Below, one piece after another: positions 10,101-57,420 of a stretch of 64,000 nt of DNA; within the stretch, counting starts at the first letter, position 1; every line of letters starts with the position of its first letter. Where the stretch lies: contig OZ287082.1 in the NCBI GenBank assembly GCA_965645245.1, positions 372,001 through 436,000 on the forward strand. The letters are read 5' to 3'. This stretch comes from Massalongia carnosa (taxonomy: Eukaryota). The translations under genes and the position numbers were made by a program. The notes beneath the pieces were generated by a model. It made no database searches. It saw only the letters and a list, made by a program, of their open reading frames with translations, and was not told the origin of the DNA.

Positions 10101-10706
10101 GTCCGTGGGTGATATCCATTCCATGAGCTTGCCATGTTGCGCATGTTCGGCTTCATGCCGTATGAAGTTAGTATCGTTCCTTATAAGTTCCACGTTACTG
10201 CGGGTTGCATCTCCACTCTCTTTCATCGCTTGAGATAGTTTACTTGATACGTTAGCGACCTCATTAAAATGTAGCTAACTACTGATATGAATTGACAAGT
10301 GATCCATCTGCAATGCAACCTCTACGAGTGTCTTTAGGCGTTCCATCCCGCCTAATATACTGGCAATATCCTCTTTCTTAAACATTCATACTAACGCCTT
10401 GCCCGCCTTCCTTATCTTGCCCCCGCCGGTTATCTTTTTCTGTAGCTGCTCTAGCGCTTGCTTGAACTGATCAAGCGGACCATTCTCAGTTGCAAGGACC
10501 CGGACCGCAGTGTAACACGGAGTATTAGAGTCTCCTTCCTCGAGGCGGAACCTGAGGGCTGTGAGAAGACTGTGAAGGTTGGCTGCCTCAACCGCGCAGT
10601 TTGCGCGTTCTTTCGAGGCATCTTCAACATCGATCAGGTATCCAAGAACCTTACTCGAAAGCTGGAGAATAGCAATAATGCTTGCTGTTGTACTGATTGG
10701 GTCCAT
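7194..10706 (-). pseudogene. Fungal NLR-like gene (HeLo-like N-terminus, NACHT NTPase, ankyrin repeats), pseudogenised
   Basis: N-terminus MDPISTTASIIAILQL; NACHT Walker A GIPGSGKT and Walker B VVIDAVDEC, plus RLVHYTAQEYF; more than 10 ANK repeats. Introns at 10243-10296 (GT..GCTAAC..AG) and 9333-9384. Lesions: TGA at 10386-10388 (W expected), the intron-2 acceptor reads AA instead of AG at 9333, a 5-bp GCGCC duplication near 7549-7558, and a 3' end replaced by an LTR fragment. Confidence 0.9.
7540..8480 (-). repeat. 99-bp ankyrin-coding tandem array with high internal conservation
   Basis: The unit GCATTGACGTCGGCGCCGTTATCGAGCAGCAGCCTCACAAT recurs about every 99 bp; protein unit EQIVRLLLDNGADVNAQ. 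Confidence 0.95.
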
Positions 10707-11438: not shown

Positions 11439-12460
11439 TGTAATGGGCTACGAGACCAGTAAGCTAATCACGAGCGACACTGATCTCGAAAGGGGAAATG
11501 CTCAGCGTGAGAGGTGGAAGATAGCTACTACGTGCTGGTCTCCGAGAGTATATGTCCAAAGAACTAATGGATGTGGAAGTGCTCAGACCAAGAGATCTCG
11601 TCCGAGACCCAAACGTAGGTTGTTCATAGAATAAAGACTAATTGCTAACGAATACTACAGGATTCGTTCTGGTATTTATCCTACTCACCCCAAGCCTATA
11701 GCCTTGGGAGCCTTGGAACCTTAGGAGCCTTGCAACCCACTTCTGACCTTATCGCCTTACATCCAACCATCCCTCAGGATCCATCTACGAACTCGGCGTT
11801 CGCTGGATCATCTAGTCAGCCTCGAGCAGCCTTCTAGATCTTCCCTTGCAAGGTAGAACACTTCTACCTCCGGCTAGATCCCTCACTACATTGCTAGCCT
11901 CTAAACATAAAGTCTAGACGCCGAGGCTGTGTAGCTTCATTTCGCCGTCACCACTACCAACGTAGCGATGGAAGGTTACCTCCGACTAAATCTCTATCTA
12001 CACTGCGGACCTGCCTCTAGACACAAGGTCTAGACCACAAGGTCATGTAGGTTCATTCAGCCGACATCACTACCAGCGTAGCAATAAAGGTGGAAGCTGA
12101 AGTTTACACCGGGGAGGCCGAGCTCAAGCTGCGTCCATCTAGCCGTGCCTCCTGCTACAACTCTTGATCCATCAAGAGATCGAGTAGCTCCGAGTAGGCC
12201 AGTAGATTCCATATAGAGTTCACGGCTAGTCTCCACAGGAGTTCGCCTTACTCCATGGCAATCTACCACCACGGCCTCGACAGGTGTTTGATCTGTAAGC
12301 AGTCTAGAACGTAGTAACAACTAATTCGGAGTTGTGTGGCAAGGTGGCGTCGTGTCAACCTCGACGGCTATGCGACTAAGTACTACGGCCTGGCTCATGC
12401 TAGTTAATCCCGCAACCGCCATAGGCGATCATGTATCCCTCTAGCGCTATCAGCATTACA
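11439..12460. mobile_element. 1022-bp solo LTR
   Basis: TGTAAT...ATTACA termini; TSD GAATT at 11434-11438 and 12461-12465; inverted copy at 13712-14729. Confidence 0.92.
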
Positions 12461-13297: not shown

Positions 13298-15964
13298 ATA
13301 TCTTCCACTTATCAGGAAGTTGAGGCTCGAATTCAACTAGCTATTGATCATCTACTGAAAAATTCTACAGCTAAAAGAGCTAAAATTGCGCGTCAATTCG
13401 ACGTGCCTTCGCAGCGACTTCGTTTTCGACTTCAAGGTCATCCCCCCGCATCTGACGTACGAGGACTGCATGGACGTCGATTATCATCTGATTAAGACTT
13501 GGCCTTAGTCTTATATATTCAACGAATTATCGCGTTAGGCCTTCATCCTCGTCTTCGAATAATAGAAGCAGCTGCCAATAAGTTACTAATACATGGCTGG
13601 ACTGATTCGACCCCACCACAACCATTGAGTCATTCATGGGCCACGCGATGGATGAGTCGTCATTCTGAATTTCAGAAGATTAAACGCAAGCCTATTGCAG
13701 CCGTACGAATGTGTAATACGGATGGCGCTAGAAGGATACGTGATCGCCTACGGCGGTTGCGGGATTAACAAGCATGAGCCAGACCGTAGTACTTAGTCGC
13801 ATAGCCGTCGAGGTTGACACGACGCCACCTTGCCACACAACTCCGAATCCTACGTTCTAGACTGCTTACAGATCAAACACCTGTCGAGACGTTGGTGGTA
13901 GATTGCCATGGAGTAAGGCGAACTCCTGTGGAGAAGCCGTGAACTCTATATGGGATCTACTGGCCTACTCGGAGCTACTCGATCTCTTGATGGATCAAGA
14001 GTTGTAGCAGGAGGCACGGCTAGCTGGACGCAGCTTGAGCTCGGCCTCCCCGGTGTAAACTTCAGCTTCCACCTTTATTGCTAAGTTGGTAGTGATGTCG
14101 ACTGAGTGAACCTACATGACCTTTTGGTCTAGACCTTGTGTCTAGGGGCAGGTCCACAGTATAGATAGAGATTTAGTCGGAGGTAACCTTCCATCGCTGC
14201 GTCGGTAGTGGTGACGGCGAAATGAAGCTACATAGCCTCGGCGTCTAGACTTTATGTTTAGAGGCAGGCTAGCAATGTAGTGAGGGATCTAGCCGGAGGT
14301 AGAAGTGTTCTACCTTGCAAGGGAAGGTCTAGAAGGCTGCTCGAGGCTGACTAGATAATCCAGCGAACGCCGAGTTCGTAGATGGATCCTGAGGGATGGT
14401 TAGATGTAAGGCGATATGGTCAGAAGTGGGTTGCAAGGCTCCTAAGGTTCCAAGGCTCCCAAGGCTATAGGCTTGGGGTGAGTAGGATAAATACCAGAAC
14501 GAATCCTGTAGTATTCGTTAGCAATTAGTCTTTGTTCTATGAACAACCTACGTTTGGGTCTCGGACGAGATCTCTTGGTCCAAGCACTTCCACATCCATT
14601 AGTTCTTGGATCACATATACTCTCGGAGACTAGCACGTAGTAGCTATCTTCCTCCTCTCACGCTGAGCATTTCCCCTTTCGAGATCAGTGTCCCTCGTGA
14701 TTAGCTTACTGGTCTCGTAGCCCATTACAGAAAGAATGCGGAGGACCCGGTCGTTTTACGAGCTCATTTTAATCAGTACAGTCAGATAATGCAGGAGCAT
14801 GGCATATGTGATGAGGACAAATGGAATTTTTATGAGACGGGCTTTCGATTGCGCATCGCACGATCAGATTGGGTCATTACTTTAGCAGATGACAAGCAGA
14901 AAAAGGTGTTTTCTAAAGATCCAGACAATCGTGGAAGTTTGACGGCCATCGAATGTATAAGTGGCGCTGGGGGCAGCATTCCTTCATTTCTCATACTCAG
15001 TGGATTGATGATTCAAGGTTCATGTGCCGAAAATGATTGGAATAATGGAGTCATGCTTTCGACAGCCGAGACTGGTTATTCAAATGACTGGTTATCTATA
15101 GAATGGCTGAAGCATTTCGATAAGCACTCCTCAAAGAGTCAAAAAGGGGCGTATCGACTGCTAATGATAGATAGTTATGGGTCGCATCATACTATTGAAT
15201 TTATTGAGTACTGTAATGAGGCCACAATTATCCCCTTCGGCCTGCCACCTCATACGACTCATATGTTGCAACTATTTGACGTCGTCGTTTTTCAGCCCCT
15301 GAAACATTGGCATGCTGATGCGGTTAAGGATGCAATGGCTCATGGGGACGAGACGTTTAATCAGGTAGAATTTTTGAATGCTTTCAACTCGTTTCGAAAT
15401 AAAGCATTCAAAGTTACGACTATAAAATCAGCATGGAAGGCCGTGGGCATCATTCCTTTCGATCCTTCCATTGTCTTCGATAAATTGGGATCAGGGGCCT
15501 CGTACATTGAGGCCGATCCTTTTGCTGATATTTATGATCAAACACCTGATTATTCGGATAATGATCTTTCGGACGCGCAAACTCCGAAGAATTTGATTGC
15601 TTTGCTTCAAGCTTCGTATGAAATTGAGGCTCAATATCCGAAATTCGTCAAAGGCGCTTTAGCATGTGCTCGAGAAAGCGAGCTGTTATGGGATCAATTA
15701 GCACTGACTAAAGCAGCCGAAAACGCTCGAAAGGTGAGGGCCAATCAGAGCAAGCATTACGTTCAAAAAGGAGGAGTTATTCAGGTGGATCAATGCAGAA
15801 GAATGACTTTCGAGCGAAAGGAGGAAGAGAAGCAATTGGAGTCGGATCGTCAGAAGAAGGCTGATCGTCAACAACGAAAACGATGGGGGCCGATATTTAG
15901 GGAGTTGAAACGGAAGATACCATATTATATAGTGAATGACTCGTATGGTTTATCAAAACGTTGA
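13298..15964 (+). pseudogene. pogo/Fot1 transposase pseudogene
   Basis: The probable start codon reads ATA (13298), there is a TAA at ~13493, and a solo LTR splits the gene at 13712-14729. Catalytic motifs are degraded (WNFYETG, DSYGSH, LQLFDV). Confidence 0.88.
13712..14729. mobile_element. 1018-bp solo LTR inserted in the transposase, inverted relative to 11439-12460
   Basis: TGTAAT...ATTACA termini; TSD GAATG/GAAAG with one mismatch. Removing it restores AVRKNAEDP in the transposase. Confidence 0.9.
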
Positions 15965-28447: not shown

Positions 28448-29093
28448 CGAAAACACCAGTTCAATTCAAGGAAAACACTAGTTCAATTCAAGAACCCTGG
28501 CGTAATGGAAGGACACCTATCGAAACACAAGTACCGCAACTTTTGATACTCTATAACTTTAACAGTCAATTGAGCCTCTATTTCTCAGTCATTTGAGCTC
28601 CTCCAGAGCAAAAACGCTCTCAGATTGAGTGTAGGAGAGCTCTAGCAATACTCCAGCAGAGTTTTTCTGCTGGTCGCACGCGACCGACGTGATAAAGCGC
28701 GCTCTAGAAGTCGGAAAAAACAACAAATACTAACAACATCACCAAAAATCGCTCTTTTTTCTTGTTTTCTTCTGTTCTGTTGTCGCATGACCTTCAATTA
28801 TTACTATCAAAATTATCTACAAAAAATATCTACTCTCGCGGGACTGTACAACAACTGTCGCGACGTCAAAGTCTTCTAAAGTTCATTCCTCATTTAAGGT
28901 TACGGGAACTTCCGCAAGCACAAATTTTCACAGCATATTTCACGTATAATTTTTGCAAATTCCATTTTCGGCTTTATCGATCTTTGTTGAACGGCCGGTC
29001 AACAGATTACTGAAAAGAAGGGGAAAAACGTCTGGAATAGGATTATACCAAAGGTCCTGTTTCAGACTAATCAGAATAGGAAGTCTCGTATTG

Positions 29094-31115
29094 ATTTGAT
29101 TTGATTATTCTTACGCCGTTGTGTCACCGGCCGAAGGCCTGCCCATGCGGGAGATGCTATATAAGCTATGTAATAAGTAGAAAACCCAAAGGTGAAAAAT
29201 TACTCCTGCGTATCCGCTTCATCGGGGGTTCGCCGCTCCCGCGGATTGATTCGTGTATCTCGAAAATCTGCGATACCTGTTTTTCAAACTGAAGTGAGAC
29301 TGCCCGGCTGCTGTTCAAGCAGTTGCGTGGCAATGGAATACTGTGTTAAAATACCTGTGCGCATGAGCCACGCGGTTACTACTTTGAGAGCTTTGGGTTC
29401 GGTGATTAGCTTGCGGTAGTCTGACGAGCCTGCCGTTCGTAGCATGTGCGTTCTGTGTTCGTGCAGTCTGCAGAACATGATTACATGTTTGGCTGTATGT
29501 AAGAGGCTTCCGCAGGGACATGCCGCCGAGTTCACACCTGGGACCTTGCGCCGATATAGAAAGTTGGCCAGTCCGATTTTTTCCGTTCTTATCTGTGTTG
29601 CTAGTGAGCTTTGCGCTTTGTCTAGTAACTTGTGTACGTTAAGCCTTTTCCTGTGTATAGGCGCCTGTTGTGCGATCGTGGGATATAACGTGTGTTTTGC
29701 TTGATATGCTTTCCACTTGTAGATCCACTGATTCTCAAAGTACTTCTTTATTATCCCGTCTTGTTGGTTCTGCGTCGTTACTTGCGCTGTGCGTTGTCTC
29801 TTCTGTGCCTCGTCGATCGTTGTCCAGGGAGGGGGAGAGGGTTGATCCAGTTTTACTGTTTTCGGTGCGTCTTTCGTCATCTTTGTTACCCATTCTCGTT
29901 TACGAGTTCCCGGTGTTTTTTCTGCGACTCGCGATTGACCTCTTTTGCCTCTGAGTTTCACTTGGATTCTATTGCACGCCTGCTTTATAATTTTTTCCTG
30001 TTCGCTGTTCGAGATTCTGGATCTCGTTTTTGTTTGTAAGCGGTCTAGATGTTGCGTTAAGGGAGGGATGTGGGTTTCTGCCTGTAATATTTCAATTGGG
30101 GTAGCCTTGTACGCTCCGGCTATGACTCGTAAACACTTGTTTTGTATGACTTCGAGTTTGCTTCTTGATTCGACTTTGGCTTTCTTTCTTGCTTCGGCTG
30201 GCATGTGCCATGCTATCGAGCCGTGCGACATGGCGGGGCGTATCACTGCTGTGTATACGTGGCGGGCTCGTAGAAGGGTCGCCCCCCAGGTTGAGGCTGC
30301 GATTTTGGTCAGTGCCATTGTTTGTCTCGTCATTTTCTTCTGAATTTCCTTGTAATGCGCTGCCCAATCGAGTCTAGTGTCAATGTATACTCCCAGGACT
30401 CTTATCGAAGTCTTGGTCTTCAGGATCAAGCCTCTTACCGCGAAGGATGAGTCCAGGTTGAATTTCTTTGGATTCTTTGCCAGGTGTATCAGCTCGTATT
30501 TGTGTGGCGCGAATACGGAGCCGTGGCGAGCGGCCCATCGTTCGCAGTCGTTGTGTATTTTTTCCAGCGTTTTGCAATTCTCTTCGGTAGACTTTCCGTA
30601 CGCCAGTATATTGACGTCGTCTACGAAACCCATGCCCGCTGCGTTGGTACCTGGTCTATTGCAAATATTGAGTAAGTCTGCATTATAAAAGAGATATAGA
30701 ATGGGAGACAAAGGAGATCCTTGCGGAATTCCTATATTCAGCTGGAATGCGTTGGTTGTTCGTTGATTGATAGTGAGAGTGGTTTCTCTTTCCTTGAGGA
30801 AGCTTTCTGTCCATTTCGTGATCCATTCCGGAATTTTTCTCTTTCTCAGATTATGAATGAGCCTACGATGTGAAACCGTATCGAAGGCGCCTGAGACGTC
30901 GATACTAAGAAGCGATGCTACTTTGTCTTTCCCTTGATTCCAGACCGTGTGTACCTGCTCCGTGAGTAGTTCGAGCGCTGTGTCCGTTGCGCGGCCTGGT
31001 CTTGCTCCCATTTGCGTGTCTGGAATTAATCTGAGTTTTTCCGTTAAATAGCTTATTTTCCTTGCTATAATGGATTCTAGCATTTTTCCAACCGTGTTTA
31101 GGAGCGCAATAGGCT
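29094..31115 (-). mobile_element. 5'-truncated family-B LINE (RT C-half, zinc finger, 3'UTR, TCAAA-type tail)
   Basis: ORF 29284..31083 has GIPQGSPLSP, GFVDD and CPCGSLLHTAKHVIMFC. Tail ATTTGATTTGATT on + near 29094; 3' stem-loop at 29122-29151. Confidence 0.93.
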
Positions 31116-33096
31116 AAGAATGATAAAATAGAGTTGACATCTCCTTCTTGAAGTCTCCATCCCAGTTTTCGTTCATCTCACTGGTGCGTTTTACGGCCCA
31201 AGACTATTGATGAATTCTACGATTGGGGTGAACGACGTCCCTTTCGCCCAGGTCAAACCCAGTTTACTCCTTAAGCATATATCAAGGGCGAGTCTAGCCG
31301 TAGCCCATGCGCCGGCGAACCGACGGGGTATCGTTACGAGCGAGATAGACATTCCCTGCTCTATATATACCGACATGCGCATACTGTCCTCTCGGGCTAT
31401 GCAGACGGTCTCCGTACGGTGGCCGCCATTGTATACCACGCCTCACGGGTTTTTTACGCCCACTTCGCGTTATTCATAAAGGTCTCCCGTTTATGAACCG
31501 ACCATGTCTCGCAGGGATTTCGACAGCTATGCTCCTTACCAGGCAGTATAGTATCGATTTTCCGTCCCTACTAACCAAAACAAGTCGAGGACAACTCGGA
31601 GGGGTGCTCGTTTGAAATTCGTCTATTAGCTCAGGGCCTAGACTGTTATCAATTAACGGGTTCCTCGTATATTGCCCTCTTCTTGTCCCAAGGGTGTCCT
31701 ATTTGATGACTAGGTTGCCTCCACCATCCCCGGTACGACTCCGGTTCGGGCCGTGTTGCTCACGGTAGCCATCAATCGGATGGTTTTCATAACCCGAATC
31801 CCTTGTATCATGTAGGGTGTGACCCTACATTATGTGTCTATATATTTTATTTCTTTCAGCCGGAGGGCTCCGTGCTGTAGACGAAGGAGATCCGTGTGAT
31901 AGACATAGCTGACCCGTGTCGTACGTCTATAGCTCTCAGCCGATGACTACATGAAAGGACTTGAACCTTTAAGAGTATGACCGAACGTTGTTAACGAGGT
32001 CTATGAAAATCTTATTAACAAGGTCTTCGAGAACAATATTAACGAAGTTTCGCTGAACTCTTTTCATTCGTTTTGTGATCCATCGAGGTCTACCAGTGTC
32101 AATTCCACACCATGCCCGTGTCAAAATACATTATTTTCAGCTGACGACTGTTAGAAAGGACTTGAACCTCTAAAAATATGTACTCCGATATTAACGGGGT
32201 GCAGATCTGTCTTAACGAGCCTCCGCAGAACCCCCTTCACAGGGACGTGTTATTGATTTATGACTGTGTTTCTTGTGACTGTATGTTTTGTGACTGTGTG
32301 TTTGTGACTGTATGTTTGTGACTGTGTACTTTGTGACTGTGTGCTTTGTACAACGTGTGATTGATGACTATGTGTTTTGTGACTCTGTTTTCCTCGATTT
32401 TATTTAACAGGCCGGGCCTATTAAATGGGATATTGTTATTCTGCTCCGAGATAGAGTTTTCTTGAGGTGACAGCATTCGCCCCGGTGCCTTTACGCGTTC
32501 TGTTGATCCCAGCTGATGACTGCCTGGGGAGACGTGAACTCTCAGGAGCTAGAACACGTGTCGACTGTGCCCGGGTGGGGGATGATGCGACTCCTTTGGT
32601 CCACATCTTATTCCAGCTGATGACTGCATGAAGGGACTTGAACCCTTAGAAGAATAGTGCAGGGACGCGCGCATTCTACCCCCCGGCGGTTGGCCTTCGT
32701 ATGCTCTTCCATACGTACGTCTGCGACGCGTGTGAACGCGTTAAATTAGCATTGTTTTGATGCGAAGAGATAGGAGCAAATCTATGTTTGACGGTCGCCC
32801 CACGGTGAGGCCTTTGGCGTCTCCGTGGTGAGGACCGATGGTGTAGAAGGAGGAGGACCGATGGTGTAGGCTCGTCCGTCTCGAGTCTTATCTGTATCGA
32901 GTTCTGATATTCAGCGGTGAAAAGAGCTCAGAATATCAGGAGCACCGTTTAGGAAATGAAATGTAACTGCATTGCTCTCGAGTGCAAGATCGTTTACTAT
33001 TAAGCTTTTCCATTGTATCATAAGAGTGGAGAAGGTGGCATGCTGATCGTTGGATCTCGTAGACCTGAAGCCTGCTCAATCACGAGGGAAGGAACC
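31116..33096 (-). other. Unidentified ~2-kb non-LINE segment inside the same TSD as the 29094-31115 LINE
   Basis: 15-bp TSD GGAAGTCTCGTATTG at 29079-29093 and 33097-33111. No similarity seen to LINE ORF1/ORF2 elsewhere in the window; contains repeated motifs. Confidence 0.75.
32260..32386. repeat. Minisatellite of 14-15 bp units (TGTGACTGTGTGTT-like)
   Basis: At least 6 TGACTGT-cored units in tandem, with degenerate copies following. Confidence 0.9.
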
Positions 33097-34543
33097 GGAA
33101 GTCTCGTATTGTCTTACATTGCATTAAAATTTATCTTTATTGAAAAAGCAAAAAAAAAACTTTCATTATATTCACCAAATTGTAGTGTCTGGTAAAGGGT
33201 TAAATCAGATTTACTGCCTTAGCGAGGAACGGTCTATATTAACCCGATTAGTATTTATTTGACGCGTTATAGTCAAATAAATAGGGATAGGAAAGAAAGA
33301 GTCATTTGACCAGTAAACAGGTGTAAATTATATTCTGACTAGTACGTCCGGGGAAAGTCAGAATAAATTATTTGGTGGCGATAAAAGGAATATTGCAAAG
33401 GCAAAAACACTATTCTCAATCGAAGGTTTAACCCGATAGGTCAGAGAACAAATCGATTGATATCAACAACTCCTCCCCCAGGCCCCCCTCCACAGCATCT
33501 ATGGGTCCCCCCGAGTACACCCCCGGGCCCCCCCCGAATCGACTCCCCCACGCCATCTTCGGTAGCGATAATTGGGAGCACCCCCTAACCGTAGAGTTCA
33601 CGGAAGCCATGGACCTAACGCGAGAATTTTCGTCCGCACCGTCCACACCCACCCCAAAAGCGAAATCTTTTGTCGCGCCATCTGGTGAATTCAGTACTAA
33701 TCTGCCCATGCCATCATTAAATTCTGATATTCGACTGAGTCCACCAATTAAACGCAACAAAAGACGAACATTTAACGAACATTCGATTGAAAGTCAAGAA
33801 GTCATCAATCGACCAAAATCGATTCAACTATTGAATACGGCAAAAAATGCATTATTGGAGGCATTCGTATTAGATCAAAACCCCGAAACGGCTATGGTCA
33901 TCTATCACGGCAATTCTCTACTGACAAAAAAACCGATCAAGCAAAAAGATACGTTAGAATTAATTGATTGGAAATTGAATAGGGTGCTAGAAAAAACTAG
34001 CCAAATTCCACAAACAAAGTGACAATCGGTGCGACCTATACAGACAAATTTGAAGGGAAATTCAAATGGAAATTCGAATTTGACTAAAAACGTCAACCCA
34101 GCAATTCGGAGCGAAACAGCCGGAGTCCCAGGGCCGCAGGTCAACGATACAGCTAGAACATGGAGCCAAATGCTCGGAAAAGCGACTGTCAATTCCGAAA
34201 ATTGGAATACCGTTCCTCGATCCAAAAAAACAAAATAACAACAAAAACAACAATTCGAATGCGAACAAATTCGATAATTCTGACGATTTCAAGGCGATCA
34301 AATCTCGACGGTTGATAATCATACCGAAAACTCAAATCGGCGATATCGATTCACTGTTGCTTCGAAACCAAATCAATTCGGTTTTTAAAGACGCGAAATT
34401 GACTATCGTTATTAACACGGTCGAAAAGTCCAAAACAGGTCAAAACATCATTCTGAATACTAGTCCTGATAACACTGCTGATGATTTATTGAACAATAAA
34501 TCAATATGGGAGCATTTATTCGACCCACGAATAGTTCGAAAGG

Positions 34544-37267: not shown

Positions 37268-40200
37268 CGGAAGGAAAATTCTACTAACGGAAGGGGCGAC
37301 CATGAACGAAAATCTCGTACCAAGAAGTGCACAGTGCGAAAGTGAGCATAGAAAGGTGAATGAGTCTCTGGTAATTAAAATCAAAGAGTATCTTGACCGT
37401 GTGGGTAACGTAGGAGACCCGATAGCGTTGCAAATTTTGCAGGAATCGAGAATTGTGCTGGAGGCACAAAATCAATTAGACAAAAAATCGCACGACACCA
37501 CACATGTGGTATCTGCTCTAAATGATATCAAAAGCACTTTACAGAGAAGTGAAAGCAGAATAGAGATCCCAACAGTAAGGAACTATGCCGCCGTCGCCGC
37601 GGCGGGACACCTCAATGAGGGCGGATCTGTGCCGGTTCGAAGCACTCTAAACAACGTAAAGACGCAGAAAGCGAAGGAACAAACACCAAGTATGATCAAA
37701 AGTGCAAGGGAACTCACCATACGAGTGACGAAGAGCGAGGATCGAGAAAGAAAAAAGCAAACGTCCACAAAGGACTTGGTAGAGGCGCTACAGAAGAGAA
37801 ATGCAGGAATAATAGGAGTATCGCGTCTCAACAGTGGAGACATTAGGATACATACCGAAACGGCAGCGATTAAGAAGTCTCTGTATGACAATACGGGCTG
37901 GGTGCGTGAAGTAGCCGCATCGGCAGCGGTGCAAAGGCGTACCTTTGCCATACAGGTACGTGGCGTCAGGATGCAACACATCGACGTCACCAATCAGACG
38001 AGAGCCATTGAGTACCTACATGCCGTTAATGCACGACTGCATGCGGGACTGAAGATCGTAAAGGTCGCTTGGTCCAACAAGGCCATCAGAGAAGGAAAAG
38101 TGCACTCTACGCTGCACATGGAAGTTGAAACTGCACCGATGGCCAACCGGCTCATCAACGAAGGTCTGCTCGTAGACTACGAGATCAAGCACTGTGAAAG
38201 ATTTCACAAAAATAACATACTAGTGCAATGCTTCAACTGCTATAAGTATGGGCATATCAGCAAATGGTGTAAACACCCCACGGCCTGTAGGCGTTGTGCC
38301 GGCGGATATCCTACGCACGAGTGCAATCCCGAGACGACCGGAGCCCACCCCATGTGTGCCACGTGCGAGAAGCCTGGTCACCTAGCGTGGTCCCCTGTGT
38401 GTGTGGTTCGAACGAAGGAGAAGAAGAAAGTAAACGACGCAAGGAAAAGAAAAGCGCATCTATACGAAGCTGAAGGGCTGGCGCTGGCGCCAGCATTCAA
38501 TTTCGGAGCCAGCAACCCCCCAGCAGAGGCAAGGACTACAACGGTAGACCTAGACTTACGGACGGAAGACTTACCTACCACGTGGAGTCTTATCAATGGG
38601 AAAAAAAAGGAAAATATCGCGCACAATAACCCAATCCGCCACACAGGCGAATGAGCCGAGGCTAAACATGAAACAAAATATCGATACCACAATTACTTTA
38701 AAAATGTTGTTTAATACTAGGATCGGAAATAATATTTTGATTAAATTTATTGTTGATAACAAAATCGCGACTAGAAAATGGATGCTAGGTCAGCTCGATG
38801 ACGAAAATATCGAAACCGGAGGTTGGGGAGAGATCGAACAGTAAAATTAGAAATGATTTATGCTGGAATATTTACGAGCTTTACAAAAACAAATTGTAAA
38901 ATCGATATTTCGATTACTAAAGGTTGTTACTAACACGGAGTAAAAACGGGGCAATATTGACGATAGATAGTTGGGTTATAAAGGGTTGATTTATTTGTAA
39001 AATAAAACCATATCTTAAAATAGTTTAGTGTCATAACCTTAGGTTGAATACACTTAATGAATAAATAAAAAAAAAAAAGAATGAGCCGAGGAGTCTATCA
39101 GGTGCCGAGACCGGAATCACATGGAAGGACATCGAGATCATGAACCCGGCAAACAGAATAAGGGCGATGGCGAAGCCCACTCTGGGTAGACCCCCCAACG
39201 CTGTCAATAGTGCCCCCTGCCCCCCTACTACCCTATCTCCTCCCATCCCTCTCCCATCTAAACCAGCAGTCACCCTAACCGCTCCGCCCCCCACCAACCA
39301 TCCCACCGCGACCGCTCCGCAAGGGGCCCACTTGGAAGTACAAATCCCTACCCAATCGAAAACGACTCCCTCGAGAGACATGGATGAAGCTTTATGAAGG
39401 ACAAAAAATTAATTAGCATCCTACAGTACAATGTCAGAAATGATCGCGTAAGTACTATGATACCATTGCTAGCGGATTCAAATATACAGGACTACGACAT
39501 CATAGCAATCCAGGAGCCGTGGCGCAAACCCCACGCTGCGACCACGCTCAGCCCGCATCAAAGCGGCTTTCATCTACTCTATCGGCCAGGAGGTGACACG
39601 AGAGTGTGCTTCTACATCAACGATAAAATAGATCCGGAAAGCGGGAAAGTGGAATTTCCAACCGCTGACATATGCATATTGATATTGCACCCCCGCGAGA
39701 ATGACGGAAGCCACAAGGAAATACATATTCACATCGTCTATAATGCATCACCCACCTTATATTCTTCAAGAGACAGCCCCTCCACCCTCCCAGATGCTCA
39801 ACGCCAGCTCTCCGCCGACGCTCATCACATCTTACTCGGGGATTTTAATCTACACCATCCTTTCTGGAATGGAGCCACCAGACCCACGCAACACGCAGCC
39901 GCGGATCAGCTGCTAGATATAGTCAATGAAGCCAATCTGTCGCTAACCCTGCCAAATGGAACCGTCACATGGGAAGCCCGAAACTCATTCAGCACCATCG
40001 ATTTGGTTTTCATGTCAGAATTCCTAACAGAGAGGCTAATTCACTGCATGTCAAGACCAGAACTCAATCAGTCATCCGATCACATTCCGATATCCTCCCG
40101 TATCTCTTTGGAATGTAAGACACTAATACAGACAAAACGCAGAGCCTGGAAGCTGCTGAACATGGAAAAGTTGAGAACAGCAGAATGCAACGCTCCCCCA

Positions 40201-41823: not shown

Positions 41824-42750
41824 AAGCTGACCTAGTATCCATTTTCTTGGAAAGACCACCTATCGAAACACAAGTACCGCAACTTTGATACTCTAAAAAC
41901 TTTCACAGTCAATTGAACATCTCTTTCTCAGTCATTTGAGCTCCTCCAGAGCAAAAACGGACTCAGATTGAGTGTAGGAGAGCTCTAGCAAAGCTCCAGA
42001 AGAGATTTTCTGCTGGTGGCACGCGACAGACGTGATAAAGCGCGCTCAAGAAGTTATAAAAAACAACAAATACCAACAATATCACCAAAAATCGCTCTTT
42101 TTTCTCACTTTCTTCTGTTCTGTTGTCGCATTACCCTCAATTATTACAACAAGAATTATCTACAAAAAATATCTACTGTCGCGGTACTGTACAACAACTG
42201 TCGCGACGACCAACTTTTTTGAAGTTCATTTCTCATTTAAGGTTACGGGAACTTCCGCAAGCTCAAATATTCACAGTATATTTCACGTATAATTTCTGCA
42301 TATACCATTTTAGGCTTTATCGATCTCCATTGAACGGCCGGTCAACAGATCACTGAAAAGAAGGGGAAAAACGTCTGGAATAGGATTATACCAAAGATCC
42401 TATTTCAGATTAATCAGAATAGGAAGTCTCTTATTATCTTACCTTGCCTTAGATCTATTTTTATCGCAAAAAAGCAAAAAAAACCCTTTCATTATTTTCA
42501 ACTATTGTAGTGTCTGGTAAAGGGTTAAATAAGATTTACTGCCTAAGCGAGGAACGGTCTATTTTAACCCGATTAGGATTTATTTGACGAGTTATTGTCA
42601 TATAAATAGGGATAGGAAAGCAAGAGTCGTTAGACCTGTAAATTGGTGTAAATTTCTATTCTGATTAGTACGTCCGGGGAACATCAGAATAAATTATTTG
42701 GTGGTGATAAAAGGGATATTGAAAAGGCATATCGATTTATTTATTAAATC

Positions 42751-48337: not shown

Positions 48338-48591
48338 AATCAGAAACGATTTATGCTGAATTTTTTTTTATTTATTCATTAAGTGTATTCAACCTAAGGT
48401 TATGACACTAAACTATTTTAAGATATGGTTTTATTTTACAAATAAATCAACCCTTTATAACCCAACTATCTATCGTCAATATTGCCCCGTTTTTACTCCG
48501 TGTTAGTAACAACCTTTAGTAATCGAAATATCGATTTTAAAATTTGTTTTTGTAAAGCTCGTAAATATTCCAGCATAAATCATTTCTAATT

Positions 48592-51437
48592 TTACTGTTC
48601 GATCTCTCCCCAACCTCCCGTTTCGATATTTTCGTCATCGAGCTGACCTAGCATCCATTTTCTAGTCGCGATTTTGTTATCAACAATAAATTTAATCAAA
48701 ATATTATTTCCGATCCTAGTATTAAACAACATTTTTAAAGTAATTGTGGTATCGATATTTTGTTCATGTTTAGGATTTCATTTGAATAATGTATGCAATT
48801 CATCAATAAGTGTTCTGGCGTTTGACGTTCGTTGCAGCGCCCTGTGCATTTTGACGAATTATAATCTTTCAATCGGTGCAGATATGATCGAAAATAACCG
48901 TGTCCGAATTTCATTTGCATAATAGTCGCAAATATTAATTTCGAACAATTATTCGACAGATAATAAAAACTCGATTTGCCCGGCTGCATTTCGAATTTCT
49001 CATAGTATTTGCCTTTTGATTTGCATTGTTGCCATTGATTCTCCCATGTGGCTAACATATTTCGATTTATTTGACCCTTTACATAATCAAATGTTATTAT
49101 CGAAGACTCGACTAGGATTCGACTATGTCCAGCTTTTGCTGCTTTATCTGCAATTTCATTTTCGACGATTTTCGAATGACTAGGAATCCATTGTAGAACC
49201 ACCTGATAATTGTTTCCGAATAAGCATTTCGAGAATTTTCGAATTTGTTTTGCGTAAGTATGATTTGTCAAGTTCTGAATTTCGTTTATCGCGTTTATGC
49301 TATCGGAAAAAATCCAAATCGTTTTTTCCAAATTGAAGAGAATATTCGCAATTGTCAATTTGTATGCCCATTTTATTGCTTGTAGTATCGCATACAGTTC
49401 AGCGTTTTTAACGCTTGACTGTTTGTTTAATTTCCAGCTTTTCGAAATCGTATGATGTTTGAGGAGACAATCTTTTTCGATAAAACGATTGAAGTTATCG
49501 GTGAAATTGTTCCAATTTCGCATAATTGGTGCAAATGTGACAGCGGAAGTTGAAAACTCGGTTTTTGATCCATCGGTATAGAGTAACATTCGCGATTTAT
49601 CGGCGTTTATTGATTGGATTTTTGATAAAGTTGAATAATAACTTGACTTTGCTGTTTCTTTGGATCTTTCGATTTGGAACTTGATTTTACAAGACGGCTT
49701 CCATGGTTTGATGAAATTATTTACTGATTCGAATTCATCAGTTTTGTGAACTATATCCGAAACGGAATGAAGAATACGGATAAGCTGACTAGGATGAGGT
49801 TTACTCGATTTTTTCTCGTCTTCGTTCCATTCAGCATATCTGTTGTTCCATAAACTAGTGTCAAAACCGATGTTTTCGAATTTCACAGAATAGGTACTGG
49901 GAATTCTTTGATAAATAGGATTATTTTCGGCAATCTTCAATAATCGAATTGCGTATTTTTGATTTTTCATCAACAATCGTAGCTTGGCTGGTAAAATATG
50001 CGATTCAATTTCCATCGCCTGAACAGGCGTGGTTTTGAATGTGCCTAAAATCTTTCGAATCATTCGATTTTGCAGATTCTGAAATAGCTTTTCATATTTC
50101 TTTTGACCGTTATACCAGATTTCTGAGCCATAGTCCGAAATAGGAATAATACATGACAGATAGAGCTGTCTGCATGCAGTTGGCTTTAGTCCCCATTCAG
50201 ACTTCATCAAATTTTGAATTGCGAAAAACGATCGATTTGCAGAAGCAATTCGCGTTTCGACGTGTTTTTTGTAATTTAGTTTTCGGTCTAACCAGACTCC
50301 TAACCATTTGACAGAATTTTTCGGTTCTAGTATTGTCCCGTTTGGTAATTGCACTTTGTCTTTTGATGCATTTCTTGACTTTTCGAAGTGAATCAACTCA
50401 GATTTGTCGTCATCAAATTTGACATTATTCGTTGCGGCCCAATCAAAAGCTATTTTGACGATAATTTCGATTTCTTTGCAATTCTGTGTGGCAGTTTTAT
50501 TTTCGACATATATTGCAACATCGTCTATAAAGCTAGGTGAATGAGCATTGAATTTCATTCGTATTTTCGGAAATAAGTAACGAATATAAATCAGAAATAG
50601 AATTGGCGAAATTGGTGAACCTTGTGGAATTCCAGATTCGATATAGTACGTTTTGCTTTTGTGTTCATCGAATATCAAATTGATCGATCGTTTTGTCATA
50701 AAATGCTTGACCCATTGAATAACTATGCGAGATAAATGCAGCTTTTTCATGACATTTAGCAATTGATTAATCGAAACAAAGTCAAATGCTCCTTTGACAT
50801 CGAGTAATAGACATGATAAAACGTTTTTGTTTCGGTTTGCGATTTCGATATCATGAACGACGTTCATTACCGCATCGATTGCAGAATGATTTTTCCGTCC
50901 GCCCATTTGTTCGGTATCTAACAAGCTCGAATTTTCGCCGAGGTAGGCTAGTCGATTAGCAACTATTTTCTCCGCAATTTTACAAAGACAATTCAGTAAT
51001 GTAATAATTCGATATGATTTTTTTTGGCAGCGAGTAGTCTGGTTTATTAGGTTTTTTTAAAACAGCACCGAGTCCTGTTCGCCAACATAACGGGTGAAAA
51101 CCGATTTGTATAAACTTAGAATAAATAGTAAAAAACACGTTTTTCAATGGTTGAAACGATTTTTGAATTATTGTGAAATTGATTGCATCAGGTCCACATG
51201 ATTTCTTTGGATTAAACAAACTAATCGCATTTTGCAATTCATTTTCGGTTAAATTCGGCCAATTGTTGTCATTTTCGCTGTCTTGATTCGTTAAATCTTC
51301 AATATTATCATCCGTGAACGGGTTTTTTGTGTACATTGCTGACACAAACGCGTCGCATTTGTGATCGAATTGAACATTTAACTTATTTTCATATTGAATA
51401 GGTGGTATTTTTTCGAACATGCGCGGTTTAGTGTATT
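48592..51437 (-). pseudogene. Displaced RT-RNase H part of family-A ORF2
   Basis: Resumes YTKPRMFEK after the insertion; frameshifts near 51020 (A-run) and near 48765. Confidence 0.9.
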
Positions 51438-54400
51438 GATTGATTGATTGATTTTTCTTACGCCGATATGACACCAGCTGAAGCTGGCCCATGCGGGAGA
51501 TACTACATAGGCTATATAAAGGCAGAAAACCCGAACGGGTAAAAAACTGCTCCTGCGTACCAGGTTTGTAGAGGACTCGCTCTTTCCCCGGGTTGATCTC
51601 TACGGTTTGGGAAACCCGCTATACCCGTTATGCGCCTGAGTAAGTGCAAGAATAAAAGAGAAGAAAAGAAAATAAGTAGAAGAAAAAACCAATTCTCCTC
51701 TCATTATTGCTCCGTCATTTGCGCGGCAATGGTGTACTGTGTTAGTATGCCCGTACGCATAAGCCATGCAGTGATTATTTTGATCGCTTTGGGGTCTGTT
51801 ATCAGTTTTTGATAATCCAGCGAGCCAGCTGCACGCAACATATCGATTCTATTATGCAATCCGCAGAACATTATCACATGTTTCGCCGTTTGAAAGCGGC
51901 TTCCGCACAGGCAGGCCGCGGACTCAATGTCTGGCACCTTGCGTTTGAATAGAAAACTCGCTAACCCGATTTTCTCTGTTCTAATTTGAATTGCGAGGGA
52001 GCTTTGCGCCTTATTCAGCAGCTTGTGCGTGTTCAACCTGTTTTTGTGCAATGGACCCGACTGTGCTATTGTTGGATCAAGCGTATGTATTGATTGATAC
52101 GCTATCCATTTGTCCTTCCATTTTTCTTTAAATCGTTTCGCTATGATTCCGTCTCTTTCTCTTTGAAGTGCGGCATATTCTGCTCGTTTTTCCTCTTGTG
52201 CATTCTCCGCTTTTTCCCATGGTGGTGTGCGTTTGGGCTTTCTCTTTGTTGATACTTCAGCTGTCAGCTTGGCCACCCATCTCTGTCTACGAGCTCCCGG
52301 TGTTTCTCCAATAATCCGTTGTCGCCCTCTTTTCCCTTTCAATCTCGTTCTGATTTTCTCGCATGCCTGTTCTATGACTTTTGCCTGACCGTTGTGTTGT
52401 AGCCTCGATCTACCTTTGGCCTGCAGATGATCCAAATGTTGCGTCAATGGACAGATGAATGTTTCCGCCTGTAACACCTCGATGGGTGTGGCCCTGTACG
52501 CTCCGGCTACTACTCGTAAACATTTGTTTTGTACGATCTCGAGTTTGCTTTTCCTCGTGACTTTGACGTGCTTTTGTGTTTCCTCCGGCGTGTGCCATAC
52601 CAGAGAACCATGGGTCATTGCCGGGCGTACCACCGCCGTGTACACGTGACGGGCTTGTAGGAGGGTCGCACCCCAAGTGGCTGCGGCGATTCTAGTCAGC
52701 GCTCTCGTTTGTCTCGTCATTTTCTTCTGTATCTCTTTGTAGTGCGCCGACCAATTGAGCCTCGTGTCTATGTACACCCCCAGCACTCGTACAGATTTCG
52801 TGACGTTGAGTAGTTTGCCGTTTACTGTGAAGGAAGCTTCGAGATTGAATTTCTTGGGATTTTTTGCTAGATGTATGAGCTCGTATTTATGCGGCGCGAA
52901 CACGGAGCCGTGGCGTTTCGCCCATCGTTCGCAATTCTCGTGTATTTCTTTCAATGTTTTGCAATTTTCTTCCGTGGATTTGCCATATGTCAGGATGTTC
53001 ACGTCGTCTACGAATCCTATGCCTGCCGCGTTTGTGCTGGGTCTATTGCAAATGTCTAAGAGGTCCGCATTGTAAAAGAGATATAGAATGGGAGATAGAG
53101 GAGATCCCTGAGGGATTCCTATGCTCAGCGGAAATGCGTTAGTGGTGCGTTGATTAATCGTGAGCGTGGTTTCTCTTTCTTTCAAGAAACTATCCGTCCA
53201 TTTGGCTATCCACTCTGGGATCTTTCGTTTTCTCATGTTGTGAATGAGCCTACGATGAGAGACGGTGTCAAAGGCTCCCGATACGTCTATGCTCAATAGA
53301 GATGCCACTTTATCGTTACCCTGATTCCATACGGTGTGCACTTGTTCAGTGAGCAGCTCCAGTGCTGTTTCCGTTCCGCGGCCCGGCCTTGCACCCATTT
53401 GAGTATCCGGGATCAGTTTAAATTCTTCCGTCAGATGGCTAATTTTCCTTGCTATAATGGATTCCAATGCTTTGCCCAACGTGTTCAACAACGCTATGGG
53501 TCTCCATGCCTTGGGATCCGTATAGTTTCCTTTTCCTGGCTTCTTTAGCGTGATAGTGTTGGCGATTTTAAAGACTTTCGGATGATATCCTTCATTCACA
53601 CATGCTTGAAAAAGTGGTGTCAGCAATTTGATTAGGTTTTCTGAACAGGCTTTGAGAATTCTATTTGTGATTCCATCCGGTCCTGGGGCTTTGTCTGGCT
53701 TTGGCTTTCGCAGCGCCGCCGCCACTTCTTCTTCCGTTATCAGTGCTGGACATTCTGGTGTTGGAGGGTACGAATATCCTACGAGATCCCCGAGATCCGC
53801 GTTAGGAGGAGGGGGAAAGAAGGACTTCTTCAGCATATTTACTCTCTTCTCGAACGTGTCTGCTATCGTATTGGGATTTTGTGCTGTTGCTAACGGGGGC
53901 ATTTTTGGAATTTCTCTTGGTGCGTCGCTTCTGTCTTTGCCCCATTTTGCGAGTCGGAAGAGTCCTGTTCTTGATGCTGCAACTTCGGCCATTTGTTCTC
54001 TGAAATGAAGATTTCTTGCCTTACCGATGATTTTCTGTTTTTTGTCGTTCAATCTGATGTAGTTTTTCCAGTCTGACAGATTTCTTTCCGCCGTCCAGAT
54101 CCTACGAATCCTGCGGGTCTCCTTCGTTGCCTCCTCGCACTCTCTATTCCAGAAGGACTTCGCCTGGGGACTAGGTTTAGACCATGGTACCGCCTCCTGA
54201 ACGATTCTTTTGAGGTAGTCTTGAATATCTGCAGTGTATGCATCAATTTCGTTGGCGCCTCGTACGACGCGTGGTGTGGGGGCATTTCTCTCAACTTCTC
54301 TCAGTTTATTCATGTCCAGGAGTTTCCAGGCTCTTCGGCGGGGAGGCGTAAGGGGTTCACAGGTGAGGCGGAGCCTCGTCGATATTGGTACGTGATCTGA

Positions 54401-54653
54401 GTCTTGATTCAGCTCCGGGACTGTGATACAGTGTTCCAATCTTTCTACGAGATCTTCCGTCATGAACACCAGATCGATGGTGCTGAATGAGTTTCTTGCC
54501 TCCCATGTCACTGTTCCTCTTGGCAGGGTGAGCGAAAGATTTTTACTTTCAATGATGTCTAGTAGCTGTTCGGACGCCTCGTGTTGACCTCGCACTCTCG
54601 CACCTCCCCAATGTGGATGATGAAGGTTGAAATCCCCTAGCAAGATGTGTTCT
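51438..54653 (-). mobile_element. 5'-truncated family-B LINE inserted into family-A ORF2 in the same orientation
   Basis: 13-bp TSD GGTTTAGTGTATT at 51425-51437 and 54654-54666; (TCAA)n tail; 3' stem-loop at 51469-51497. Confidence 0.95.
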
Positions 54654-55837: not shown

Positions 55838-57420
55838 TAACCAAGCATTAATTCATCATTCGATTTTCTAGGATTTAGCGAGATAAACATTTCGCAACCT
55901 ATATCGTTCGATTGATGATTTTTGTTGCAATTGACGCATTTCAGAATTGCATGTGCGCATGCGATTTTAGACTTGCATGTTGTGCATTCATGATTATGCG
56001 TTTCATGACTTTGTGCGCATATACTGCATTTTGCCGGACTTTTGCATTGATAATGCTTATGTCCAAATTTCTGACAATTAATACATTGCGTGTTTGGACG
56101 AACGGAAGCAAATATTTCCGTGTCACAATGTCTACCCGCGATATTCAGGCCTCTTAACGCGTTTGACGCTTGATTTTGATTATTGAAAGTCAAAACTACC
56201 GACGACGTGACTTTGTTTTGACGATCCCGAGCAAGCCATCTTGGTAAATCGCATAGTTGCATATTCGAATTGTATTTTTCGATTTCGGTTTGCAAATATT
56301 GCATGTTATTATCGAATAACGAGATATTTACTCCGTGTGCTATGACTTTAAACCAGGATTCGTCTTTTCGAATTCTTTGTGATTCGAAAATGTGTTCCCA
56401 TGAAGATTTATTTTTCAACAATTCTTCGGCATTGTTGTCAGGGCTAGTGGTGAGAACGATATTCTGACCGGTTTTGGACTTTTCAACAGTATTGACGATG
56501 ATGTTTAAATTTGCGTTTTTTAATAGCGCGTTAATTTGATCACGCAACTTCATAGAGTCGATTTGAGCGTCAGGATTTTTCGGTGAAATCACGAGTCGTC
56601 TGGCCTTGATTGCATCAAATCGATCGACTTTGTTCGAATTATGATTCGAACTTTTCCTTTGAATAGTAGTCCAATTTTCGGAGTTTTCGGTTGCTTTTCC
56701 AAGCATTTGACTCCATGTACCGGTTGTGCTAACATTGTTACCAGAGACCCCGGTAGCTCCTTTGCGAATGGTCTGATTTTCGATAATTGAATTTTCGTTC
56801 AATTTAACAACAGGTTTTTGGATTTTTGGACCATTCTGTAGTGGAGTCGTTTGTTGTTGTGACGTTTTTGAGGAAAGATGACTAGTTTGATCAAGTACTA
56901 TGCCCATTTTATAGTTAATCATATCTAAGGATGTTTGTAAATTGATTGATTTTTTCGAAATCAACGAATTAACGTTGTCAATTACGATAGCCGTTTGTGG
57001 ATTTTGGTCCAGTACAAATGATTGCAATAATGGCTTTTTGGCCGACTTTAGAAGCTCAATTGAATTTGCCCGATTGATCGCTTCTTGGCTATCTCTCGAA
57101 TGTTCGTCAAATGTGCGTCTTTTATTTCGTTTGATTGGTGGGCTTGATCCAATGTTTAAGTTCAATGAAGGCATCGGCAAGATAGTGGAAAATGGACCCG
57201 ATGGGAATTTCGTTGCCTTTGGTGTCGGTGTTGACGGGGCTGATGCATATTCGCGAGTTTGATCCATAGGTTCAAGACGGGGTGAGCTCCCTATCAACGC
57301 CACCGGAGATGGTCCCGGGGAGTGTCGGGGGGGGGCCGGGTAAGGGGTCGATAGGGGGGCGGGACCGGCTGGGGGTGGTGTCCTTGGTATATTCCGGCGG
57401 TTCATTACCGCGTTAAACAT
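55837..57420 (-). CDS. LINE ORF1, 527 aa, intact
   Basis: Homologous to 42751..44325; three Cys/His knuckles; TAATG overlap. Confidence 0.9.
   Translation of the reverse strand: MFNAVMNRRNIPRTPPPAGPAPLSTPYPAPPRHSPGPSPVALIGSSPRLEPMDQTREYASAPSTPTPKATKFPSGPFSTILPMPSLNLNIGSSPPIKRNKRRTFDEHSRDSQEAINRANSIELLKSAKKPLLQSFVLDQNPQTAIVIDNVNSLISKKSINLQTSLDMINYKMGIVLDQTSHLSSKTSQQQTTPLQNGPKIQKPVVKLNENSIIENQTIRKGATGVSGNNVSTTGTWSQMLGKATENSENWTTIQRKSSNHNSNKVDRFDAIKARRLVISPKNPDAQIDSMKLRDQINALLKNANLNIIVNTVEKSKTGQNIVLTTSPDNNAEELLKNKSSWEHIFESQRIRKDESWFKVIAHGVNISLFDNNMQYLQTEIEKYNSNMQLCDLPRWLARDRQNKVTSSVVLTFNNQNQASNALRGLNIAGRHCDTEIFASVRPNTQCINCQKFGHKHYQCKSPAKCSICAQSHETHNHECTTCKSKIACAHAILKCVNCNKNHQSNDIGCEMFISLNPRKSNDELMLG

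Follow-up and report, generated by a model that had tools for sequence, protein, structure and literature searches.

The analysed window, a 64-kb stretch of the Massalongia carnosa genome (64,000 nucleotides (nt) of contig OZ287082.1, assembly GCA_965645245.1, positions 372,001 to 436,000), is a dense nest of transposons containing copia and gypsy pol genes, several open reading frames (ORFs) of long interspersed nuclear elements (LINEs), a DDE_1 transposase, and a NACHT-ankyrin gene. The 5' untranslated region (5'UTR) of a LINE of one family, here termed A, carries an insert of 4,003 bp that consists of a non-coding cargo, referred to below as C, and the 3' portion of a LINE of a second family, B. 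On the minus strand, the order of the insert is 5'-C (1,985 nt, 33096 to 31112), one nucleotide, B-LINE (31110 to 29094)-3'. The components of the block, including the copies of its target-site duplication (TSD), and the corresponding uninterrupted site are as follows:

29079..29093, unstranded: left TSD copy, GGAAGTCTCGTATTG, an exact match and the final aligned block of the left flank against the intact family-A copy
29094..29106, minus strand: 3' tail of the B-LINE, a 5-nt repeat found by TRF, (TTGAT)n on the plus strand and ..AATCAAATCAAAT-3' in the LINE sense
29094..31110, minus strand: 5'-truncated B-family LINE of 2,017 nt, comprising ORF2 amino acids (aa) 527-1135, the 3'UTR, and the tail
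31111..31111, minus strand: one junction nucleotide, T in sense, between the last B-aligned position (31110) and the first cargo-aligned position (31112)
31112..33096, minus strand: C, a full-length non-coding copy of 1,985 nt with the RNA 5' end at 33096 and the 3' end (..TTAGCC) at 31112
33097..33111, unstranded: right TSD copy of 15 bp, an exact match, placed by alignment to the intact family-A copy
42422..42436, plus strand: uninterrupted paralogous target site GGAAGTCTCTTATTA in a second family-A copy

The architecture of the block is secure. Exact copies of the 15-mer are present at both ends (29079-29093 and 33097-33111), as the original prediction had claimed; with up to two mismatches allowed, the sole further match in the window is 42422-42436 (two mismatches), and three hits were obtained in 0 of 100 shuffles. 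Alignment of the flanks to the intact family-A copy (42180-42740) shows that the shared 15 nt form both the end of the left flank and the beginning of the right one, and therefore excision of 29094-33111 restores family A, which agrees with the proposal made earlier. A single exact TSD thus surrounds the pair, and no TSD was found at the inner junction of C and B. Seven public sequencing runs from five studies share sequence words with the window (at best 0.57 of the words; one run is labelled as a lichen metagenome). Among the 13 runs listed, none that shares the stretch is an RNA run. Four of them, designated X1, X4, X5, and X6, were aligned to the window, and the contig results given here cover 26 of the 7,668 contig pieces. 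Several contigs of run X1 represent family-A copies that lack the insert.

The B-LINE portion retains a minus-strand ORF (29284-31113) that is open over 609 aa and starts with the residues PIALLNTVGK. This product is identical in 595 of 609 residues (98%) to aa 527-1135 of the 1135-aa full-length B ORF2 (P0130), and a protein search returned a 599-aa record of the same sequence, which belongs to a 90% cluster of 36 members; the cluster also contains full-length ORF2s (1135 and 1174 aa) encoded by chromosome-scale contigs. Its match to RVT_1 (E=7.5e-28) begins at profile position 11 of 205. Judged by these comparisons, B is a young family, and the window copy is cut at the very start of the reverse transcriptase (RT) domain. 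The B-LINE had been predicted to stop mid-RT at position 31115; it does stop, but at the beginning of the domain, and the junction lies at 31110/31112. The tail (TRF period 5, 3.2 copies at 29091-29106) abuts the left TSD, and longer (TTGAT)n or (GAT)n stretches occupy the same point in other B copies from public contigs (loose ends at 29105 and 29107).

The cargo is unrelated to the other contents of the window. Its best blastn matches elsewhere in the 64 kb are 13-23 nt long with E of at least 1.3, and tblastx gives nothing at 1e-2; the earlier statement that some 1980 bp resemble no LINE part of the window accordingly holds for all 1,985 bp. The longest stop-to-stop frame in C is 113 aa. 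The following internal features were recognized:

31129..31571, minus strand: conserved structured 3' domain of C (~440 nt) with 15 helices and 82 predicted pairs (RNAalifold)
31931..31980, minus strand: T-arm-like module 1, with a 7-bp outer stem, a 5-bp stem, the loop UUCAAGU, and the conserved GCAGUCAUCAGCUG
32132..32181, minus strand: T-arm-like module 2
32257..32388, minus strand: 14-15-nt tandem repeats in C, (TTTGTGACTGTGTG)n on the plus strand (TRF, 8.9 copies)
32504..32553, minus strand: T-arm-like module 3, the most diverged
32608..32657, minus strand: T-arm-like module 4
32830..32869, minus strand: 23-nt direct duplication, GAGGACCGATGGTGTAG x2, with a copy number that varies among C copies

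The repeated motifs that the original prediction saw in the cargo are real, a 44-nt motif being present four times in addition to the array of 14-15-nt repeats. The array at 32257..32388 is variable among other C copies (contig joints from 32303 to 32389 and from 32301 to 32257), and at the 23-nt duplication the contigs of X1, X4, and X5 show 40-nt step-back joints.

Several known classes of elements were considered for C and rejected. A tRNA or a tRNA-derived head of a short interspersed nuclear element (SINE) found no match, as ARAGORN detected 0 tRNA genes in the window and Rfam gave nothing relevant on the block at E<=10. The hammerhead-like string CUGAUGA likewise has no Rfam match and lies on the plus strand, the one without the fold described below. 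Strings of the telomere template that would mark a telomerase RNA are absent from C. A DNA transposon, a Helitron, or an element with long terminal repeats (LTRs) or terminal inverted repeats (TIRs) was rejected as well, since C has no TIR, its ends read GGCTAAG.. and ..GGAACC, and no TSD directly encloses it; a later-inserted LTR or DNA element accompanied by a deletion, which had been named as a possible refutation, was looked for and left no TIR, LTR ends, or TSD of its own.

C is an independent repeat unit with fixed ends, because the B-type contigs (X4 rec 13 and X5 rec 18) stop aligning exactly at 31110, and the cargo-type contigs (X4 rec 14 and X6 rec 25) start exactly at 31112 and continue into sequences that differ from one another and from B. 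Window-type C is therefore found with three different 3' partners (in the window, X4, and X6). A contig of X5 (rec 23) spans cargo positions 32830-33092. In X1, between 18 and 39 distinct contigs extend over every variant site of the cargo, which is therefore multi-copy; distinct contigs, not summed contig depths, were used to judge copy number. As a separate observation, the X6 contig (rec 25), which derives from another organism, carries a 517-nt fragment of a B-like LINE tail and, 517 nt further downstream, its C copy (31112-32842, 42 differences), so that the same elements cluster in a relative.

A scan of metagenome contigs with the degenerate 44-nt motif yielded 50 loci. Approximately 40 of them share the blocks 31245-31579 and 31687-31837 together with the motifs, in the same order and with 66-77% identity (blastn). 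One sister family of ~1.95 kb shows 92-95% identity among its copies and has precise ends that resemble those of the window copy, with matching termini (NCCAAGGATAG.. in the sister family vs. GGCTAAGAATG.. in the window, and ..CCGCGAGG vs. ..CACGAGGGAAGGAACC). Fungal genes flank the metagenome loci, among them those for GH20, a Zn2Cys6 factor, and ankyrin proteins. An origin from a ribosomal DNA spacer was rejected (no rRNA in 20 loci). Two C patterns gave 0 hits in viral contigs, which speaks against the viral or viroid source entertained earlier, and one C pattern gave 0 hits in prokaryote genomes.

The structure of C is visible by comparison only: single-sequence folds of the four motifs are no better than those of shuffled sequences (z from -0.49 to +1.37). 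The RNAalifold prediction for the 3' domain was obtained from an alignment of the last ~490 nt of C in 13 diverse copies. Compensatory double changes are found in 46 of the 82 consensus pairs, and 95.7% of the cells of the 3' domain can pair, vs. 85.5% after shuffling (0 of 500 shuffles reach the observed value) and 32-49% when the partners are slid. The 50-nt module, in which the outer stem is stacked on the inner one and a 16-nt strand is conserved, was collected in 45 distinct instances; 84.3% of its cells pair, double changes number 115 vs. 40 expected (0 of 500), and a U.G pair is found in 44 of the 45 modules. G.U-rich covariation appears only on the minus strand of the window, which is the LINE sense strand. 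No Rfam family matched any of 20 loci at gathering score, and a search of 7 diverse loci at E<=1 likewise gave no hit. From the covariation model, C is thus predicted to be a previously uncatalogued, diverse, and highly structured RNA family associated with LINEs, in keeping with the suggestion that the cargo might be an undescribed structured RNA element.

The 3' ends of C at these loci were located by BLAST, and 23 distinct junctions were counted, including that of the window and 22 from the metagenome. When the B ORF2 was used as a tblastn query, nineteen of the locus junctions proved to have a LINE ORF2 immediately 3' of C and in its orientation, beginning at aa 1, 5, 6, 6, 273, 310, 403, 479, 630, 688, 716, 720, 791, 846, 981, 990, 1016, 1016, and 1025, respectively; in the window, ORF2 starts at aa 527. 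The ORF2 lies on the C strand in 20 of 20 locus rows with ORF2 hits, and no more than 1 extra nt separates the two parts. One side of C is always an AT-rich flank, and the other is GC-normal LINE sequence. Within each of three sets of loci (L006/L048/L037, L019/L009/L022, and L041/L034), the LINE parts are nested truncations of one LINE.

C always lies 5' of LINE sequence, in sense orientation, as it would also do if it were the native 5'UTR of the LINEs concerned; the window element would then be a LINE that has lost an internal segment but retained its original 5' end. Two loci (L012/L029), in which C lies 345 nt upstream of ORF2 aa 1, resemble such an arrangement, and 5'UTR replacement is known in LINEs (available text of bioRxiv 10.1101/2022.11.04.512097). 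This explanation is nevertheless very unlikely. The end of C is joined at 19 distinct ORF2 junctions and, within one LINE family, at points 596 and 1,801 nt apart; deletions would need to have hit the identical C start nucleotide each time; and the LINE partners of C are mutually only 33-50% identical in ORF2. Likewise, the cargo does not behave as the normal 5' region of a B subfamily, an outcome the original prediction had allowed for, as junctions range from ORF1-proximal positions to ORF2 aa 1025.

Two separate events or a DNA rearrangement, i.e., successive insertions of C and of a truncated B, or twin priming on two RNAs, are least likely of all and hardly credible, even in a window that is a dense transposon nest. 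One exact TSD surrounds the pair and none lies at the inner junction, and the pairing is found again at 22 further junctions, with TSDs that enclose both parts. Directly around C, no repeat of at least 8 nt was found in 10 complete sister copies, the longest shared string being 7 nt, and C has no TIR, LTR ends, or tail. Twin priming predicts opposite orientations, whereas the G.U pairs place the C RNA on the LINE sense strand; twin priming is therefore excluded.

TSDs enclosing the C-LINE pair were identified for L037 (14 nt), L034 (11 nt, following an A10TA10 tail), and L002/L044 (13 nt). The 10-nt repeat noticed in L022 is considered fortuitous, since LINE ORF2 homology continues beyond it, and no TSD was found for L005, in which the LINE part appears to be interrupted near 1327. 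L037 and L002/L044 share both the junction and a 651-nt LINE part at different loci, with different flanks and TSDs, and the C of L002/L044 is 5'-truncated by ~147 nt; composites have therefore been re-copied as units. The original prediction had opposed a composite family with a fixed junction to a capture from a free single-copy source. Neither alternative describes the data as a whole: a re-copied unit does exist, no free-standing C copy was found among the 23 junctions, and the outcome is a third one, namely a multi-copy RNA fused to LINEs at many junctions.

Such re-copying raises the possibility that the window copy itself descends from an already established non-autonomous composite family consisting of C and the final 2,017 nt of B, transcribed from C and mobilized in trans via the B 3' end, like SVA or a LINE-tailed SINE. 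We regard this as unlikely, although it is a serious candidate. The pair of re-copied composites just described, the second of which is 5'-truncated in C, provides a precedent, and the window copy, with its exact TSD, open 609-aa frame, and 98% identity to B, is young. On the other hand, no second 31110/31112 junction occurs among the matches listed, which is a weak test, the exact 599-aa product has been recorded from a single contig, and the other window-type C copies among the matches listed (X4 and X6) have different partners.

Taken as a whole, the block is probably the result of one LINE-mediated retro-insertion of a two-part cDNA, a chimera of the MINE type (see below) formed by template switching; the claim that a foreign RNA and a 5'-truncated LINE entered together in one LINE-mediated insertion is supported. 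We infer template switching as the best-supported and most likely route, and with it a free C RNA and the expression of that RNA. In this scenario, a ribonucleoprotein (RNP) of a B-family LINE would nick the family-A 5'UTR and prime reverse transcription on the tail of the B RNA. Copying would cover 2,017 nt of B and reach the Ile codon that follows Pro-527 in ORF2, where the reverse transcriptase would move to the 3' end (..TTAGCC) of a separate non-coding C RNA of ~2 kb. C would then be copied to its 5' end, and integration would yield the 15-bp TSD. As the 5' module of LINEs that are 5'-truncated to varying extents, C would be spread by the cDNA synthesis of its partners, and the composites could later be re-copied as units via the LINE 3' end. 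Since composites can be re-copied, the switch may date to this insertion or to a parent copy.

The nucleotides at the junctions bear directly on the switch. C terminates in ..TTRGC at 18 of the 23 junctions and in ..TTAGCC in the window type. At 8 distinct junctions, the template upstream of the switch point can be read from a longer copy of the same LINE, and all 8 of these show 1-3 nt of template identity to the C 3' end (GC in 6 cases and G only in 2). This identity is consistent with a growing cDNA that anneals to the acceptor RNA at its 3' end. At the window junction, ..TTAGCC of C is followed by the single T and by ATTGCG of B. The corresponding sequence of a B-like copy in the window, AGA CCC ATA, makes a CC overlap at the window junction plausible but unproven.

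A similarity between the two parts of the insert was also noted. The plus-strand start of C (31112-31135, GGCTAAGAATGATAAAAT) resembles the sense 3' end of B (29094-29117, GGCGTAAGAATAATCAAAT), i.e., the 3' end of the C RNA is roughly complementary to that of the B RNA, a hand alignment giving ~16 pairs with one bulge and two mismatches over a 19-nt segment of B. Both ends are A/U-rich, and their complementarity could help to bring the two RNAs together.

Several observations weigh against template switching from a free C RNA. No free C gene was seen among the 23 junctions, and the acceptor RNA is a putative one. Clear LINE ORF2 homology is missing at 3 of the 23 junctions: the partner in L001/L043 has a weak, RNase-H-like RVT_3 match (E=0.0014, below the Pfam cut-off), that in L013 has no ORF2 homology or Pfam match, and that in L024/L039 resembles, by eye only, the CCHC knuckles of ORF1 zinc-knuckle proteins; blastx of the partners in L001, L013, L024, and L039 gave nothing at E<=0.01. 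The sister families are only 66-77% identical to the window C outside the conserved blocks. The window junction bears one extra nucleotide, and its microhomology is possible at most as a candidate. Finally, the template directly before the joined base is AG in 6 of the 8 referenced junctions and AGG in the other 2, which would also fit a signal resembling a 3' splice site or a cleavage-linked joining, and in 5 of the AG cases the A is unexplained by identity to a C end in ..TTGG.

The last of these points leads to joining at the RNA level before reverse transcription, either by ligation of C to a LINE RNA fragment or by splicing (in trans or in cis) of C, as a 5' exon, to cryptic AG acceptors; the chimeric RNA would afterwards be retrotransposed in the usual manner via the LINE 3' end. 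Architecture and orientation are the same as those expected from template switching, template switching and RNA joining are both named as candidate mechanisms in bioRxiv 10.1101/2025.02.02.635956, a G precedes the joined LINE base in 8 of 8 cases, and the large conserved 3' domain of C could define a processed 3' end. However, no single donor/acceptor register accounts for the two AGG junctions, and a splice-only model with one donor register was rejected for this reason. GT follows the C end in 0 of the 23 junctions, and no unspliced precursor was seen. Moreover, the C after ..TTRG in 18 of the 23 junctions and the GC in 6 of the 8 templates fit base-pairing with an acceptor end in ..TTRGC. 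Joining of RNAs is, overall, an improbable account, but it is the main rival of template switching.

The MINE elements of Magnaporthe were reportedly described by Fudal et al. in 2005. According to the available text of Gogvadze et al. (2007; PMC2104539), 33 chimeras of Magnaporthe grisea combine a full-length WEIRD sequence of 1.1 kb with MGL LINEs at 28 truncation sites and are flanked by 10-20-bp repeats; solo WEIRD copies and homologues were not found. The same text gives the junction template consensus as GCC*A/U, proposes template switching, reports no microhomology, and reads WEIRD as a host housekeeping RNA. All five structural features by which that text recognizes chimeric retrogenes are found in the window element. 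(i) The 5' RNA is full-length, the ends of the window C matching those of other copies (31112 in X4 and X6; ~33092-33096 in X5) as well as the sister termini. (ii) The LINE is 5'-truncated and tailed (aa 527-1135 of 1135, 98% identity, with the 3'UTR and the 5-nt repeat tail). (iii) Truncation points vary, with 19 junctions in related loci and three partners of window-type C. (iv) The two parts are joined directly and in the same orientation, the sense of C being given by covariation and G.U pairs and ORF2 lying on the same strand. (v) Short direct repeats are present (15/15 nt in the window, and 14, 13, and 11 nt in sister composites).

MINE and the C-LINE composites thus share a full-length non-coding RNA (ncRNA) at the 5' side, a variably 5'-truncated LINE at the 3' side, the same orientation of both, direct repeats, many junction sites, and the lack of a solo RNA copy; moreover, the MINE motif ends in GCC, as does the window C (..GCC). 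They differ in the size of the RNA (1.1 kb for WEIRD and ~2.0 kb for C), in the host, and in the LINE partner. WEIRD has no reported homologues, whereas C is a diverse family present on many fungal contigs with a covariation-supported fold, and no microhomology was reported for MINE, in contrast to the 1-3 nt in 8 of 8 referenced junctions here. It was also observed that the M. grisea template consensus ..GCC (PMC2104539, Table 3, in the available text) equals the last three bases of the window C RNA, whose end reads ..TTAGCC (within 31112-31118). Should WEIRD have a GCC end as well, the "hot-spot motif" would represent microhomology to the acceptor end. Three WEIRD primers (PMC3978060) have no match with up to 5 mismatches in 230 kb of C-bearing DNA, a result of little weight at such an evolutionary distance.

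Other chimeric or composite retroelements are related to C-LINE in part. U6 small nuclear RNA (snRNA) has a length of 107 nt. The mammalian chimeras of U6 and other small RNAs with L1, for which RNA ligation and template switching are debated (available text of bioRxiv 10.1101/2025.02.02.635956), resemble C-LINE in the full-length RNA at the 5' side, the 5'-truncated LINE at the 3' side, the sense-sense arrangement, and the TSDs; U6, however, is a bona fide cellular gene with free copies, whereas C is ~2 kb long, multi-copy, and seen only in chimeras. SVA and Mg-SINE, the latter with an MGL-like 3' end, rely like C-LINE on a LINE 3' end and on the LINE machinery, and at least one C-LINE composite was re-copied; their structure is fixed, whereas the junction of C differs from copy to copy. 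Exchange of the 5'UTR is a feature of mammalian L1 elements. It is also described for SolRTE of Nicotiana (available text of bioRxiv 10.1101/2022.11.04.512097). Such switching likewise places an unrelated 5' module before a LINE body, but it serves intact LINEs, whereas C is mostly found on truncated bodies that are not coding-competent and is itself the conserved partner.

The Magnaporthe work was the only described equivalent of C-LINE found in the open-access literature, as far as the available texts go (including 10.64898/2026.02.14.705750). The architecture of MINE and U6/L1 is therefore already known, and what is new is a conserved, structured RNA family that hitch-hikes on LINEs. Chimeric LINE retrocopies are usually seen as accidents involving abundant host RNAs, with MINE/WEIRD as an isolated fungal case. 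The presence of C on several LINE lineages, at many positions and never alone, points to non-autonomous retrotransposition by template switching and not by mimicry of LINE 3' ends. It also offers a large new structured RNA together with a junction rule, according to which the template matches the last nucleotides of the acceptor. For genome annotation, it is a warning that C units of ~2 kb, if not recognized, will be entered as "unknown repeats" or LINE 5'UTRs.

A bolder reading, which we put forward tentatively and do not expect to hold in full, is that C is a dedicated and ancient hyper-parasite of fungal LINEs. C would be a capped ncRNA of ~2 kb, with neither transposition machinery nor a LINE-like 3' end, that multiplies only by appending itself to LINE cDNAs. 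The 15-helix domain would set the ..TTRGC(C) end, possibly through self-cleavage or directed processing, and dock on the LINE RNP; the chimeras would carry the C promoter, so that no master gene would be needed. WEIRD would then be a member of the same family, and the consensus GCC*A/U a consequence.

Several further features of the window lie outside the block. A 1,382-aa open frame on the minus strand (51707-55852) is an in-frame mosaic with two endonuclease domains, in which family-A ORF2 aa 6-404 (86.5%) are joined to B-like ORF2 aa 143-1127 (75%), with a family-A ORF1 and 5'UTR upstream. By its sequence, it looks like a LINE/LINE recombinant, possibly the product of another template switch. 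A 404-nt inverted repeat (38672-39075 and 48361-48764) is 100% complementary and lies among LINE copies whose mutual similarity is 80-95% elsewhere; a very recent duplication, gene conversion, or an assembly effect could account for it. Inverted-repeat arms of ~1 kb (11439-12460 and 13712-14729), which are 94-97% complementary in four collinear pieces, adjoin the DDE_1 transposase ORF (14705-15961), and this combination suggests a long-TIR or foldback DNA transposon. Lastly, the 99-nt tandem repeats at 7455-8496, within the minus-strand ORFs at 7472-10274, are ankyrin repeats of a NACHT/NPHP3_N-ankyrin (fungal NLR-like) gene, with a mutual identity of 67-90%.

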